From a virus (taxonomy: Duplodnaviria; Caudoviricetes): a stretch of 32,626 bases of DNA. Where the stretch lies: positions 1-32,626 of the IMG/VR virus record IMGVR_UViG_3300042898_002829. One strand, 5' to 3'. This document shows positions 10,828 through 30,984 of the stretch, piece after piece. The notes below the pieces were generated by a model. The model was not told the origin of the DNA, made no database searches, and saw nothing but the letters and a program-made list of their open reading frames with translations. The position numbers and the translations under genes are program-made. The first letter of the stretch is position 1. Each line of letters starts with the position of its first letter.

Positions 10828-10839
10828 TTTTTTTTTTAT

Positions 10840-10847
10840 TATATTTG
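10840..10847 (+). promoter_or_regulatory. -7 promoter element ending 4 nt before ATG 10852
   Basis: TATATTTG-TATT-ATG. Confidence 0.6.
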
Positions 10848-10851
10848 TATT

Positions 10852-15033: not shown

Positions 15034-15572
15034 AAAAAATAATAGCAATACTTTTTATAATATTATTGACTTCATGCGGAGCAAGAAAAGTTAATAAAGA
15101 AAAATCTAAAGAACAAGCTAAAACTGAAACTGTAGACAAATCTACAATTGAAAGTAAAGTAGATATAAATGTAAAAACAACTACTACTGTTAAGGTTGAT
15201 GATAAAAACGAAACTATAATAGAAGAAACCATAACTGAGCCAGTAGACGCTTCAAAAGAAAGCTTTGTAATAGATAAAGATGGGTCAAAGGTAGTGTTGG
15301 GTAACGTAAAAAAAATAGTTCGTAAAACTATTAAAAAAAATAATACTAAATCAGAAGTTGTTAGTGATATTAATGAAGTTAAAAAAGAAGCTTCTAAAGA
15401 ACAAAAAAATATAAATACTAATACAGTATCAAAAAAGGAAAACAGTTTAAAGGAGGTAGACAAAAAACAGTATAATCCGTTTATGTTGATTATTATAGGT
15501 TTAGTTTGTTTGGTTATTTTATATTGCTTATACAGGTTTTATAAAAAAATGCCTTTAATTCCAAAAATTTAA
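15030..15572 (+). CDS. Putative unimolecular spanin (lipoprotein with C-terminal TM); start revised to 15030
   Basis: MKKIIAILFIILLTSC lipobox, polar middle region, C-terminal TM 'PFMLIIIGLVCLVILYCLY'; ATGA-coupled to the endolysin. Confidence 0.75.
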   Translation: MKKIIAILFIILLTSCGARKVNKEKSKEQAKTETVDKSTIESKVDINVKTTTTVKVDDKNETIIEETITEPVDASKESFVIDKDGSKVVLGNVKKIVRKTIKKNNTKSEVVSDINEVKKEASKEQKNINTNTVSKKENSLKEVDKKQYNPFMLIIIGLVCLVILYCLYRFYKKMPLIPKI

Positions 15573-15573
15573 T

Positions 15574-15684
15574 TATATTTGTATATCAAATCTAAGTCAG
15601 TAGCCTAACGGAAATTAAGAGTGTATATAGGTTCATTAGATTTTGAATAAAAATAATCCCAGTAGTAATTTATTGGGATTTTTT
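15574..15684 (+). ncRNA. Candidate small RNA 1 (promoter 15574-15581, terminator 15655-15684)
   Basis: TATATTTG, then stem AAATCTAA/TTAGATTT enclosing GCCTA/TAGGT, then hairpin AATCCCAGTA/TATTGGGATT plus TTTT; no ORF. Confidence 0.45.
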
Positions 15685-20410: not shown

Positions 20411-20517
20411 AATTCTAAGAATGTTTTTATTGCTACAAATACTCTAAACAAAAATACCGCTACAATTGATGATATAAAAAATAAAATTCCGCCGTGGTTA
20501 TATAAAAATTTTTTCAT
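20407..20517 (-). CDS. 36-aa single-TM peptide (absent from ORF track)
   Basis: MKKFLYNHGGILFFISSIVAVFLFRVFVAIKTFLEL; ATGA overlaps at both ends; paralog of 21485-21589. Confidence 0.7.
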   Translation of the reverse strand: MKKFLYNHGGILFFISSIVAVFLFRVFVAIKTFLEL

Positions 20518-21068
20518 GATTTTTTAGTTTTTTTTTCAGAATGCAAGTTAGCAATAATTTTTATATTTACGGTCTTTGCAATTCTATTTTCTAAATTAAA
20601 AGGTATTTCAATATCAAAATCTGCAATCATAATTGTAAAATCTGCCACAATTTCAATGCCTCCTTTTACTTTTTTGAGAAAGGAATTGACTATAATTTCT
20701 TTTGATTTTCCGTGCAGAGTTATTTTTCCTGCTATCTGATATTCTTTTTCTACCTCATTAATATCAAAGTTAATAATTTTACCTTTAAAAACAGCTCTTG
20801 GATATTTTTTGCTTTCTATGTAATTGTCATTAAATTGTCGTTTCATAATATCCATTGGAAAAACAAAGTCTTTCATTACAAGCACGCATACTAGTGCGCT
20901 TGTTTTAGGATCGAGCATGATTGTTCCTGATTTACTAACCGCTTTTATATCTTTAAAAAAGGGAACAGAAACATCAAAATTTACAATTGCTTTTGTGGTT
21001 TTATATTTATTCTGAGCCATCATGCTTATTGATATAAAAAACATAATAAATAATGTGGTAGTTTTCAT
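20514..21068 (-). CDS. YceI-like (polyisoprenoid/lipid-binding) exported protein
   Basis: Signal peptide; 'FNDNYIESKKYPRAVFKG', 'IAGKITLHGKSKEI' and 'ADFDIEIP' resemble Bacteroidota YceI. Confidence 0.8.
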   Translation of the reverse strand: MKTTTLFIMFFISISMMAQNKYKTTKAIVNFDVSVPFFKDIKAVSKSGTIMLDPKTSALVCVLVMKDFVFPMDIMKRQFNDNYIESKKYPRAVFKGKIINFDINEVEKEYQIAGKITLHGKSKEIIVNSFLKKVKGGIEIVADFTIMIADFDIEIPFNLENRIAKTVNIKIIANLHSEKKTKKS

Positions 21069-21769: not shown

Positions 21770-21967
21770 TTAATTGTTGCTAATTTCTAGCGATAAATCA
21801 TCCCAGAATTTAAATCCTTCTGGTGACTTTTCCCAAAGAAAAGCGGATAATAAAGCTTCCAATAGTGATTCCTTTTCTTGTATTAAAGCTTCGTAAGATG
21901 TGTTTCTTAAAGCTTGTTCTCTGTAAGGATATTCTAATGTTTCGAAATGCTGTTTAATTGTTTTCAT
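21770..21967 (-). CDS. Hypothetical early protein, paralog A
   Basis: About 35 of 58 aligned residues identical to 21954-22169 (hand count). Confidence 0.8.
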   Translation of the reverse strand: MKTIKQHFETLEYPYREQALRNTSYEALIQEKESLLEALLSAFLWEKSPEGFKFWDDLSLEISNN

Positions 21968-22169
21968 AATTTCTATTTGTTATTAATTTATAAAATAATT
22001 TATTCCAAAATTTAAATCCCTCTTTTGATTTTTGCCAAGGGAAGGCACATGCTAAAGATTCTTTTAAAGATTCTTTTTTTATTTCTAATCTTTCTTTAGG
22101 AGTATTTTTTAAAGCTTTTTCTCTGTAAGGAGTAGCTAATAATTCTAAATGTTCTCTAATAGTTTTCAT
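21954..22169 (-). CDS. Hypothetical early protein, paralog B
   Basis: Shares PYRE.AL.NT, KESL and AF.W.KS.EGFKFW with 21770-21967. Confidence 0.8.
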   Translation of the reverse strand: MKTIREHLELLATPYREKALKNTPKERLEIKKESLKESLACAFPWQKSKEGFKFWNKLFYKLITNRNYENN

Positions 22170-22290
22170 TTTTTTGTGTTTGTGTTAAATACTCTTCGCT
22201 TTTTTCTTTTGCATATTTCCTAATGTCTTGAATTACTTTAGGATGGCATCTGACTTGATACCTTTCGTTAGTTAATTTTTTTCTTCCCAT
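22156..22290 (-). CDS. 44-aa basic protein, possible ribbon-helix-helix DNA binder (absent from ORF track)
   Basis: MGRKKLTNERYQVRCHPKVIQDIRKYAKEKSEEYLTQTQKNENY; first gene of the early arm. Confidence 0.6.
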   Translation of the reverse strand: MGRKKLTNERYQVRCHPKVIQDIRKYAKEKSEEYLTQTQKNENY

Positions 22291-22569: not shown

Positions 22570-22900
<331 letters not shown>

Positions 22901-27792: not shown

Positions 27793-28227
27793 ATGGGAAA
27801 AAATAAGTATATTGAAACTCCAGAAATAATGTGGGATTATTTTTTACAGTATAAAGAACATGTGAAAAGTAGTCCTATTTTAATTAAGGATTGGGTAGGT
27901 AAAGATGCAGAGGAAGTTTATAAAGAAAAAGAAAAACCACTAACCTTTATAGGGTTTCAGAATTGGTTAGATGATCAGAATATAATATCAGATGTGACTG
28001 ATTATTTTGAGAATAAAGGTGACAGATATACAGAATATGTCCGCATCTGTTCGCGTATTAAAAGAAACATTCAAGATGACCAGATTTGCGGAGGTATGGT
28101 TGGTATCTACAATCAAAGCATTACTCAACGATTAAACGCATTAATTGAGAATGTTAAAACAGAACACTCTGGAGAGGTTACAACTAATATCATCTCATTG
28201 GGTTCGGGTACTAAGCCAAATGAATAA
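27793..28227 (+). CDS. terS: Terminase small subunit (P22 gp3-like)
   Basis: 'IETPEIMWDYF..Y...KPLTFIGF...GGMVGIYNQSITQRL'; directly upstream of terL. Confidence 0.85.
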   Translation: MGKNKYIETPEIMWDYFLQYKEHVKSSPILIKDWVGKDAEEVYKEKEKPLTFIGFQNWLDDQNIISDVTDYFENKGDRYTEYVRICSRIKRNIQDDQICGGMVGIYNQSITQRLNALIENVKTEHSGEVTTNIISLGSGTKPNE

Positions 28228-28233
28228 AACTAT

Positions 28234-29575
28234 ATGAAATTAATAAGTAAACAAGAAAATGCGGTGTACTACCTTAAGGACAGCTTAACAAAAGAGCTAG
28301 TCTATGGTGGCGCCGCTAGTTAACCCCCTCTTATCTAGTATTTGAGGGGGTGAAAATGCAGGAGGTGGTAAGTCAGCTTTAGGTGTTTTATGGATTATAG
28401 AACAATGTCAACTGTATCCAGGTACAAGATGGTTAGTAGGGCGTTCAAAGCTAAAAGCATTAAAAGAAACGACTTTAAATACTTTCTTTGAATTAACTAC
28501 TGATTTAAACATTACTTCACAATTCAATTATAATGCTCAATCGGGTATTATTTATTGGAAAAACGGTAGTGAAATATTATTAAAAGATTTATACTCCTAT
28601 CCGTCAGACCCAAACTTTGATAGCTTAGGTTCGTTAGAAATTACAGGGGCATTTATTGATGAGTGCAATCAGATAACTTATAAAGCGTGGCAAATTGTTA
28701 AATCTAGGATTAGATATAAACTAAAGAAATATGATTTATCGCCTAAGCTATTGGGCACTTGTAATCCGTCAAAAAATTGGGTTTATGCTCAGTTCTACCT
28801 AAAAGATAAAAATAACACTTTAGACAGGGATAAGAAGTTTATTCAGGCATTGCCAACAGACAATCCTCACTTGCCTAAATCTTATTTAGAATCTCTTTTA
28901 TCACTTGATGACAATAGCAAACAAAGGCTATACTACGGAAACTGGGAGTATGATAACGACCCAGCTAAATTAATTGACTACGAAAAAATACAAAATATAT
29001 TTACAAATGACTTTGTAGCTACTGGAGAACCTTTTATAAGTGCTGATATTGCGCGTTTTGGTAGCGATAAAATGGTTATAATGGTTTGGCAGGGATTTAG
29101 GGTAGTTGAAATATTTACGCTTGGTAAATCGAGTATTACAGAAACATCAAAAGCAATAAAAGATTTATCGGCTAAATGGAAAGTACCATTAAGTAATATT
29201 ATTGCTGATGAGGACGGAGTAGGCGGAGGTGTTGTCGATATATTAAGATGCAAAGGTTTTGTAAATAATTCAAGACCTTTACCTGTAGAAAATCAAATAG
29301 TACAATATCAAAACCTAAAGACACAATGTTACTTCAAATTAGCTGAAATGATACAAAATGGAGAAATATTTGTAAATTGCAACGATGGAAACGTTATTGA
29401 CGATATGTCAAAAGAACTGGAGCAGGTTAAAAGAGATAAGATTGATAGCGATGGAAAGCTGCAATTATTATCAAAAGAAAAGGTAAAAGAATCAATCGGA
29501 CGTTCTCCTGATTACTCAGATGCTCTAATGATGCGCATGTATTTCTGCTTTAAACCTGATTTCTTTATTTTATAA
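28234..29575 (+). CDS. terL: Terminase large subunit, interrupted: segment 1 is 28234-28317, 43-nt gap 28318-28360, segment 2 is 28361-29575 (432 aa if joined)
   Basis: Segment 1 reads MKLISKQENAVYYLKDSLTKELVYGGAA. Segment 2 (+1 frame) reads GGGKSALG, Walker B 'GAFIDEC', 'LGTCNP', nuclease 'SADIARFGSD' and 'RSPDYSDALMM'. The ORF track shows only 28751 onward. Confidence 0.9.
28318..28360 (+). other. 43-nt coding-gap element in the terL P-loop (candidate translational bypass element)
   Basis: AGT TAA, hairpin ACCCCCTC/GAGGGGGT (28323-28351), TGA in the downstream frame (28343); flanked by Ala codons GCT and GCA. Confidence 0.7.
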
Positions 29576-29598: not shown

Positions 29599-30984
29599 AT
29601 GGCTAATAATAAAATACAAATGGCGTGGAAGGCGCTAACAGGTAATAATCAGGGTAATAATGCTTTTAATGAAGCTTTTTTACAGTTGATAGGTGGCGGT
29701 TATGCTAGATACGATTATAATAATAAAACCTATTTAGAAAGAGGTTATAATGAGAATCCTACTGTGTTTTCTATTATTAATAAGCAAACCGTTAAGACTG
29801 TTTCGGTTCCTTATTGCATAAAAGAAATAGAAAGCGAGAAATCGTATTTTAAACTTAAGCAATTAGATTTAGCTACAAAAGGTACGCTTTCTTTAATGCA
29901 ACAAATTAAACGTAACAGTCTATCTACTAAGGCTTATAAATCAGAGGAAAAGGACTTCCCTTTAATGCAGCCTAATCCTAACCAAACTTGGTCAGATGTT
30001 ATTGGATTGTATAAAACATATATGAAGATAACAGGGAACTATTATCAATATCATTTGTCAGCTAAAGATGGAATGAATAAAGGAGTTCCTAAAATGGTTT
30101 ATGTATTGCCTTCTCACTTAATGCAAATTGTATTGAAGCCTAACGCAAATATGTTATTTGATGAAAATCCAATTGATTACTACATGCTTGTTGATGGAAA
30201 TACTTATATTAAATTTATGGCTGATGAGGTTTTGCATGTAAAATATGTGAATCCTAACTATGATACGCAAGGTTCTCAATTATACGGTCAATCGCCATTA
30301 AGATCAGGTTTAAGAAACATAAACAGTCAGAACAGCGCAATTGATACTAATATTAAAATGCTGCAATCGGCTGGTGCTTATGGTTTTTTATATGGTAAAG
30401 GAACTCCATTAACTTCGGACCAGGCTAACTCATTAAAAGAACGTTTAGTTGAAATGGATAAAGATCCCGAAAGGTTAGGTAAGATAGGGGCATCATCTGC
30501 TGAGGTTGGCTTCCAAAGAATATCCTTGACTACTGATGAGTTAAAACCTTTTGATTATCTTAATTGGGACCAGAAAACAATATGTAATGTTCTTAACTTC
30601 CCTGATGAATTACTAAATGCTGATACTTCTGGAGCTATGGCGGGAAGTACTAATATTGATGCTAGAAAACAATTGATTACAGACGATATACAACCAGACT
30701 TAGTGTTGTTACAATCAGCTTGGAACAAATCATTTATACCGTTATTCAAAGGTTATGAAAAAAGCATAATCGAGTGGGACATAAGCGAACTTCCAGAAAT
30801 GCAAACGGATATGAGAGCTATGGCTGAGGCATTAAACTTACTTCCATTAAAACCAAACGAAATAAGAGAAGCGTTTAAATACGAAAGCTTAGATGACGAT
30901 GGTATGGATGTTGTATGGATTAACTCAGGTAAACAAAGAATAGATGATGTTTCGCCTGGAGTAATAGATAATGCTAATTTATAA
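29599..30984 (+). CDS. Portal protein (HK97-like)
   Basis: 461 aa after terL; 'PNPNQT...ITGNYY', 'EVLHVKY.NP', 'YGQSPL' and 'PNEIRE'. Confidence 0.92.
   Translation: MANNKIQMAWKALTGNNQGNNAFNEAFLQLIGGGYARYDYNNKTYLERGYNENPTVFSIINKQTVKTVSVPYCIKEIESEKSYFKLKQLDLATKGTLSLMQQIKRNSLSTKAYKSEEKDFPLMQPNPNQTWSDVIGLYKTYMKITGNYYQYHLSAKDGMNKGVPKMVYVLPSHLMQIVLKPNANMLFDENPIDYYMLVDGNTYIKFMADEVLHVKYVNPNYDTQGSQLYGQSPLRSGLRNINSQNSAIDTNIKMLQSAGAYGFLYGKGTPLTSDQANSLKERLVEMDKDPERLGKIGASSAEVGFQRISLTTDELKPFDYLNWDQKTICNVLNFPDELLNADTSGAMAGSTNIDARKQLITDDIQPDLVLLQSAWNKSFIPLFKGYEKSIIEWDISELPEMQTDMRAMAEALNLLPLKPNEIREAFKYESLDDDGMDVVWINSGKQRIDDVSPGVIDNANL

Follow-up and report, generated by a model that had tools for sequence, protein, structure and literature searches.

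Programmed ribosomal bypassing has been established in very few natural genes. In gene 60 of phage T4, as described in parts of two reports (10.1101/2022.08.31.505936; 10.1101/2024.12.09.627546), 50 nt are bypassed and the system is associated with a MobA cassette. In the terminase of Streptomyces phage Hau3, 10-nt UUA blocks were put forward as candidate bypassing in passages of PMC10732093. Here we describe a gap of 43 nt within the terL gene of a phage genome, hereafter the window (the whole analyzed stretch of 32,626 nt). Based on comparison with related sequences, we predict with good confidence that this gene is read by programmed ribosomal bypassing from GCU to GCA.

The gap in the terL gene of the window

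The window represents the closed circular genome (181-nt terminal repeat) of a lake phage. Among 46 scanned proteins, many of which remained without assignment, a single terS, a single terL and portal, head, tail and lysis genes were found, and neither a second terL nor a homing endonuclease was recognized; tRNA genes were not found in the window either. The terminase small subunit gene (27793..28227, plus strand; phrog_606, E 1.8e-7) is followed by a terL 5' piece of 28 codons with YGGAA as last residues, as read from the frame (28234..28317, plus strand), and a 3' piece of 404 codons that begins with GGGKS (28361..29575, plus strand; Terminase_3 PF04466, phrog_2). Directly 3' lies the portal gene obtained by the gene scan (29599..30984, plus strand), with no nuclease gene in between. 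The protein is a Terminase_3-type TerL of the 11b-like Flavobacterium phages, with a PF04466 match above cut-off and 79% identity of its 3' piece to the TerL of phage 11b. Given this identity, the host is likely a flavobacterium.

Other parts of the window deserve mention as well. The motif TATATTTGTA is repeated upstream of genes (1177-1194, 10834-10851 and 15568-15585); it resembles the Bacteroidetes -7 promoter element, which fits a flavobacterial host. The region 22600-22830 is origin-like, with repeated GTGTAAA/TTTACAC motifs near a switch in GC skew and 58-nt imperfect inverted repeats that flank a poly-A tract of about 48 nt. A small gene is present in tandem duplicate at 21770-22174 (180 nt, 72% identical; phrog_25460). 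On the minus strand, an ORF of 184 aa (20514-21068) has a signal-peptide-like start and no PHROG match and, judged by eye, looks like a host-derived periplasmic protein.

From the ATG at 28234, terL can be read for 28 codons to YGGAA, the last codon being GCT (28315-17), before AGT and TAA follow. The +1 frame is then open for 404 codons from 28361. All coordinates that a first-pass annotation had given for this locus proved correct when rechecked on the sequence. Both pieces are separated by a coding gap of 43 nt (28318..28360, plus strand; from sequence and family comparison), which comprises AGT, the stop TAA (28321-23), a hairpin, a spacer and the landing codon. Removal of exactly 43 nt indeed restores YGGAAGGGKS, as had been stated, and this is the motif of the 70 intact relatives introduced below. 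Deletions of 34-49 nt open the frame too, while YGGAAGGGKS results from 43 nt only. Readthrough, a simple frameshift and re-initiation across the gap are all ruled out by the positions of frames, stops and starts: the frames differ, a TGA is located at 28343 and the first ATG, GTG or TTG occurs only at 28751. The first-pass annotation had excluded them on the same grounds. A P-loop that is cut mid-way cannot be assembled from two separate chains. As there is, in addition, no in-frame start before 28751, the gap must be skipped exactly.

A GC-rich stem of 8 bp had been noted within the gap and is present at 28323-30/28344-51. No other perfect hairpin of the window has a stem of 8 bp or more that contains 6 or more G/C and encloses a loop of 3-20 nt; its z-score against shuffles is -2.8. 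This predicted gap hairpin (28323..28351, plus strand; folding and covariation) has a loop of 13 nt and consists of a C run followed by a G run; it is similar to the terminator hairpins of phages, though lacking a U tract. An A/U-rich spacer of 6 nt (28352..28357, plus strand; 5-9 nt in all 33 regions of the family) leads to the likely landing codon GCA (Ala; 28358..28360, plus strand), assigned by the matched codons of the family. Sequence and the same matched codons point to GCT (Ala; 28315..28317, plus strand) as the likely take-off codon.

A public-run contig (X1), possibly of the same source as the window, comprises the whole stretch in one piece at a depth of 49. Another study provided a contig of 151 nt (X2, depth 2.5) that crosses the gap with no differences, and in two further cases (X3, X4) the gap is not covered. 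No gap-deleted joint was seen in the public-run contigs, which drop rare variants. As to whether the insert is fixed, a point raised in the first-pass annotation, the same insert thus occurs in another study and no joint was seen in the assembled contigs.

A family of gapped terL genes

Relatives with inserts at the same site, whose existence had been considered in the first-pass annotation, were found. Protein similarity alone led to 80 loci; three truncated ones were left out, and of the remaining 77 readable close relatives, 70 were intact while 7 carried a gap of the same build. In all, 33 distinct gap regions were obtained, 30 including the window through pattern scans and 3 from distant TerL groups. 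The scan of metagenomes covered 9 of 64 parts and delivered 120 loci with one new carrier (L307). Among the 31 loci of the genome scan one carrier was detected (L435, the same region as L095), located in a MAG contig, and no cultured host. Two unclassified rows (L082, L222) were dropped from the pattern-scan set, and blastn revealed no carrier among GenBank phage records. Most carriers were found with a pattern that demands a C run and a G run, so this invariance is partly built in; the 7 carriers from the protein-only fetch and 5 others found without this demand show the same hairpin polarity. Gap lengths are 40-45 or 51 nt, all three frames occur (10, 20 and 3 regions), and the gap follows one of four residues within Walker A: the second Gly, either of the two Ala, or the first Gly of GGGK. 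Judged by this comparison, the 43-nt gap is a family trait and not an accident. Three loci (L121, L082, L204) form a subtype of 51 nt, in which a hairpin of 20-21 bp covers the take-off codon itself. The cultured phage 11b (L023, intact) is the tree sister of carrier L032 and offers a natural background for tests. In the open-access literature we found no published description of a gapped terL family, while bioRxiv supplements could list more cases.

Conserved GCN codons on both flanks were a further expectation of the first-pass annotation, and the codons on either side of the gap share bases 1-2 in 30 of 33 regions. The take-off codon was chosen by a script as the best match among 2-4 candidates per region, and a few of these matches may therefore be luck, but not 30. 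The matched codons track the site, with Ala/Ala at the two Ala positions (GCT/GCA in the window) and Gly/Gly at the two Gly positions, and in both repeat copies variation is confined to base 3. The remaining 3 regions comprise GCT/GTA, where GTA keeps a G-U pair with the Ala anticodon. Since none of 57 intact genes encodes Val at this position, the GTA landing codon is probably not decoded. The spacer on the 5' side is fixed (5 nt in 27 of 33 regions), while the one on the 3' side is A/U-rich and varies from 5 to 9 nt across the 33 regions. All three frames, a fixed 5' spacer and a variable 3' spacer are as expected if the tRNA finds the 3' end. Together with the 5' stem-loop and the minimal forms described below, these comparisons support well the Ala hop from GCU to GCA proposed in the first-pass annotation, which stands as a prediction on that basis.

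At the second-Ala site, GCA serves as take-off codon in 0 of 26 regions, compared to 18 of 57 intact genes, and as landing codon in 16 of 26. Such a bias would correspond to weak pairing at departure and strong pairing at arrival, but is suggestive only, as the cassettes are related. Take-off is followed by a stop codon in only 8 of 33 regions and by various sense codons in the others, such as AGT in the window (rank 26 in its codon use). Hungry or rare A-site codons were not evident, as the sense codons after take-off are not significantly rare (P 0.10). With an A-site stop in so few regions and sense codons of ordinary frequency, the hop must compete with ordinary decoding. Several carriers contain a GCA or GCG decoy at the base of the stem, preceding the landing codon by 7-11 nt, and a perfect GCA decoy is present in two of the three GTA cases. 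Thus landing is not a plain first-match scan. Two further arrangements were considered and rejected: take-off from the first Ala, as the codon before take-off mismatches the landing codon in L081, L091 and L181, and an outer helix pairing the take-off and landing codons, which does not form at Gly sites and is interrupted at many Ala sites.

The hairpin within the gap shows the compensatory stem changes that the first-pass annotation had regarded as informative, since a stem of 7-12 bp covaries among carriers. In 18 regions its closing pair is G-C (9), A-U (4), U-A (4) or unpaired (1). Consequently, the 'stop' contributes its third base to the structure, and U-A leaves no stop at all. The stem begins 5 nt past the take-off codon, i.e., at +9, one codon short of the 11-12 nt at which A-site-blocking hairpins are reported to act in parts of PMC7282821.

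The hairpin core of the L015/L117 type had 21 viral matches, 14 outside terL and 7 in terL Walker A, the latter being all of its in-gene matches. Outside terL, 12 of 14 matches are followed by at least 5 T within 10 nt, while the 7 matches in terL have 1-3 T there; two of the former are located right after the stop of a capsid gene. The terL matches include L449 (minus strand, 901-922), which shows the same gap geometry in another TerL subfamily (QGGTSA before and GKT after the gap), with GCC to GCA as codon pair and GAT at the A-site position. Across L446-L466, one hairpin core serves both as a terminator-like intergenic element in diverse phages and as a terL gap. Given the U-rich 3' sides of the non-terL matches, the gap hairpin probably originated from a terminator whose U tract was lost; the window loop is unlike the pattern, so for the window this is an extension only. 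No terminator-like site was detected in the window between 27000 and 30000, where the gap stem is followed by GAAAAT without a U tract, and Rfam delivered no match at gathering score within 27900-28700.

The first-pass annotation had further seen a mini-SD in the 3' arm of this stem. A G run and an AU-rich spacer are present before the landing codon, with the G run being paired and terminator-like. Phage start sites, read by eye, mostly have A/T-rich leaders, and Bacteroidia ribosomes sequester their anti-SD according to parts of PMC10798248. The host is thus likely SD-blind. As a terminator origin already accounts for the G run, a mini-SD role is doubtful.

A second structure, missed by the first-pass annotation, lies upstream of the gap. 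We predict a 5' stem-loop of 20 pairs (28261..28316, plus strand; -25.1 kcal/mol) that is entirely coding and ends on the GC of the take-off codon, with z-scores of -3.6 against dinucleotide shuffles and -5.1 against synonymous controls. Among carriers, z-scores below -2 were obtained for 24 of 27 against dinucleotide shuffles (6 of 57 intact genes) and for 24 of 26 against random synonymous recoding (5 of 57 intact genes, P 6e-12); these counts and P values overstate independence, as carriers share cassettes. The carrier fold was the more stable one in 12 of 12 comparable carrier/intact pairs. Carriers show several different 5' folds. Within 10 carriers picked for sharing one fold type, pairing in the lower helix reaches 95.5%, and three two-sided changes occur, whereas in 10 intact genes 81.8% pairing follows from the amino-acid sequence alone and these genes do not beat their own shuffles. 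Four of five distant carriers have a 5' fold (z -3.2 to -4.6), and L204 lacks a separate one. The folding predictions therefore indicate that the 5' stem-loop is under selection in carriers. A downstream barrier structure was considered as well and rejected, as carriers and intact genes do not differ in folding over the 60 nt past landing (P 0.22). In 26 carrier compared to 50 intact nascent peptides, no carrier-specific residue was seen, while a shared signal is possible.

In a sister TerL clade the gap is reduced to a few bases. Stop-containing gaps within Walker A lie between Gly codons and measure only 5 nt (GGT TA GGT) in the identical L547 and L548 (about 885-900) and 8 nt in L553, L555 and L556 (about 885-900) and L554 (about 633-648), with the GGC/GGG pair of L554-L556 being a poor wobble match. 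These minimal forms, three sequence types only, have no gap hairpin. Their 3' pieces are open for 401-402 codons, and their 5' folds reach z-scores of -4.0 to -5.3, compared to -2.3 to +1.8 in 6 intact relatives. To our knowledge, 5 and 8 nt are too short for any intron. This is the best argument for a shared ribosome hop driven by the 5' stem-loop, and we infer that minimal and long gaps share one mechanism.

Mobility of the gap, proposed mechanism and alternatives

Relaxed selection downstream of the gap, which the first-pass annotation had named as a sign against a working gene, was not seen. Carrier genes are under purifying selection, with dN/dS values of 0.020-0.064 in 6 carrier-carrier pairs and 0.026-0.042 in three intact pairs (for tree and dN/dS, rows below 380 aa, with E above 1e-50 or exactly duplicated were excluded). 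The window's own branch comprises 57-68 synonymous compared to 14-24 non-synonymous changes, which may predate the insert. A quick tree was built from 83 TerL 3' pieces, 20 of them from carriers. On this tree, the gap label needs 15 changes, and at least 10 gains or losses of the gap are forced by well-supported branches. The nearest 5' piece was that of another carrier in 15 of 20 carriers, compared to 8 of 20 for the 3' piece; thus the 5' piece travels with the gap. For example, the window's 5' piece is nearest to carrier L015 (84%), while its 3' piece is nearest to the intact L001 (81%). Similarly, L021 and the intact L025 are 95% alike downstream and 76% upstream, and L547 and the intact L549 are 96% alike downstream and 67% in the 5' piece. 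The window insert is most like that of L081 (81%), though both TerL proteins are only 49% identical.

Where flanks of at least 200 nt were available, 11 of 28 carriers but none of 58 intact genes had an HNH gene directly upstream of terL; with flanks of at least 400 nt the counts were 6 of 21 and 0 of 56. The minimal form L547 has such a gene as well. This neighbor of the carriers encodes HNH_3 and is missing from the window. Two intact terL genes have a GIY-YIG gene directly upstream. Among 17 HNH-first loci with TerL, we found 1 hairpin gap, 2 gaps of 5 nt, 4 intein-like inserts, 2 small frame breaks, 7 intact motifs (6 of them divergent) and 1 case unrelated in position. In L474 (1091-2130; also L487-L489), an insert inside the terL Walker A encloses an HNH-type ORF of 204 codons in another frame. 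We take this insert to be intein-like by its Cys ... His-Asn motif. The small frame breaks lie in Walker A just 3' of the HNH gene, in L544 (about 2025-2050) as a run of 8 G and in L470 (about 2005-2030) as extra bases after Arg, plus a 5' hairpin; either a programmed shift or an assembly error could underlie them. In the window, 14 extra bases between the former terL ATG and the present start (28220..28233, plus strand) were revealed by junction comparison with relatives. The ATG at 28220, where intact relatives start terL, now opens an ORF of 5 codons, and in L042 a longer remnant survives whose end resembles that of the HNH gene in L092. It is possible that the 14 bases are the scar of a lost HNH gene.

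Taken together, the HNH link suggests a selfish cassette, and the following scenario could be envisioned. The gap hairpin, 5 nt past the take-off codon, would slow decoding of the next codon whatever its identity, while the 5' stem-loop would zip up as the mRNA exits the ribosome, strip GCU from the anticodon and push the ribosome forward. Peptidyl-tRNA-Ala would thereby leave GCU (28315-17) and, with decoy triplets hidden by the hairpin, land 5-9 nt beyond it by re-pairing at GCA (28358-60). Decoding would resume at GGA to yield a motor of 432 residues, with ELVYGGAAGGGK as junction peptide, whereas non-hopping ribosomes would decode AGU and terminate at UAA. The cassette of HNH gene, recoded 5' piece and gap would spread by homing. 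By analogy to the T4 case, the gap may block the nuclease and so shield the conserved Walker A DNA, and the window phage would have lost its HNH gene. A regulatory role of the gap, by which the first-pass annotation let it throttle the level or timing of TerL, is unsupported, as 70 of 77 relatives do without the insert.

Other explanations have to be weighed against this reading. An unknown cut-and-ligate route that reads two hairpins might remove the 43 nt from the RNA, with the matched codons being relics of a target duplication. It would explain that the codon after GCT is free and that no stop is needed, and both hairpins covary, as any structure-reading enzyme would require. We regard it as unlikely: the 5- and 8-nt gaps share the same kind of 5' stem-loop and are, as far as we know, below the size of introns, both repeat copies are free at the third base only, the distance to the 3' end is variable, and neither a known RNA family (see the Rfam search above) nor an RNA ligase or splicing gene was recognized, the latter among 46 window proteins of which many lack an assignment. 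A group I or II intron or another Rfam RNA was rejected given the 43 nt and the lack of a gathering-score match. The hop might alternatively start from the codon before the stop, AGU in the window, with T4-like geometry, an A-site stop and unmatched landing, resulting in a Ser-containing junction peptide. The first-pass annotation had kept this option, and it profits from a stop two codons past Ala/Gly in 16 of 33 regions and from the third base of such an A-site stop forming the first stem pair. It is nevertheless highly improbable, because a stop occupies the presumed take-off position in 8 of 33 regions, because the codon varies in the others, where residues of ten or more different codons would enter the P-loop, and because the conserved landing codon would be left unexplained.

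TerL could also be supplied from elsewhere, either by a genome subpopulation that precisely deletes the hairpin or by a co-infecting intact relative. Intact close relatives are common (70 of 77), and hairpins between short repeats favor slippage deletions. However, no joint or variant occurred in the contigs, albeit these drop rare variants, carrier clades diverged to dS >1 with the gap in place, and selection on the 5' stem-loop and the matched codons would be left unexplained, which renders this explanation very unlikely. Finally, terL, an essential gene yet interrupted by a stop and a frameshift and known from contigs, might be dead or misassembled, and the first-pass annotation had listed a defective genome among its alternatives. 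The identical insert in a second study, 29 related regions and dN/dS values of 0.02-0.06 among carriers contradict this, as do the mainly synonymous changes on the window branch, if they do not predate the insert; the explanation is largely refuted and hardly credible. Programmed bypassing from GCU to GCA is consequently the reading we prefer. On a more general level, we tentatively propose, as an idea that may well prove wrong, that a recoded stem-loop in coding sequence suffices to launch a hop without A-site stop, peptide signal or SD pairing, and that HNH homing cassettes used this repeatedly at the terminase Walker A, the gaps measuring 5 to 51 nt and the long ones being derived from captured terminator hairpins. 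If true, this would represent a second, simpler and portable bypassing design, in which natural forms range from stop-hop to long gap.

Comparison with described bypassing systems

Bypassing in terL would matter in several ways. A family comprising dozens of natural variants within one essential gene would make the RNA-driver model, in which pairing of the exiting mRNA pushes the ribosome, directly testable and free of the entangled stop, peptide and SD signals of T4 gene 60. Besides introns and inteins, the gap would offer a third way for a homing nuclease to protect a conserved site. In addition, some 'broken' metagenomic terL genes are probably functional and mis-annotated.

Hau3 terL and the Magnusiomyces byps are more distant from our case than T4 gene 60/MobA. 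Like the terL gap, Hau3 concerns a terminase large subunit gene as a candidate for bypassing, for which both a landing codon and local structure were proposed. It differs, according to the passages of PMC10732093, by a rare-codon UUA trigger, a proposed regulatory function, a length of 10 nt and another TerL family and host, and these passages do not mention an HNH cassette. The byps of Magnusiomyces mitochondria, as described in parts of PMC5009743, require an A-site codon that is unused as well as the relaxed decoding of mitochondria, and occur at 81 sites in many genes, whereas in the terL family common sense codons follow take-off and in-gene matches of the hairpin core (7 of 21) are confined to terL Walker A. 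A further parallel are the A-site-docking stem-loops of dnaX and HIV, downstream hairpins that can block tRNA binding regardless of the A-site codon. In the parts of PMC7282821 concerned, these act at a distance of 11-12 nt from the P-site codon and cause -1 frameshifting, while the terL stem is located at +9.

T4 gene 60, as far as described in the parts of both reports cited at the outset, shares with the terL gap matched codons, a 5' stem-loop, an AU-rich 3' part of the gap and an HNH cassette. A stem-loop at the start of the gap is found in both, beginning 5 nt after take-off in terL. The target of gene 60/MobA is a large topoisomerase gene, whereas here it is the terL Walker A with HNH_3 as neighbor, and there is no sign of shared sequence. 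The matched codons of the terL family are mostly Ala, unlike in gene 60. Take-off is followed by a stop or hungry codon in gene 60/MobA, in contrast to a stop in only 8 of 33 terL gaps and AGT in the window. The 5' stem-loop covers the take-off codon in terL carriers but lies 9 nt upstream in T4, and it is strongly selected in carriers while reported as not conserved among MobA clades. From stem end to landing, terL gaps comprise 5-9 nt compared to 26 nt for the extended stem-loop of T4. Unlike gene 60, the terL family has a terminator-like gap hairpin, includes forms of 5-8 nt, revealed no peptide signal and likely resides in an SD-blind host. In its predicted working the terL gap is like T4 gene 60/MobA, but it is not a member of that group, as it differs in gene, in the lack of an A-site stop and in 5' geometry.
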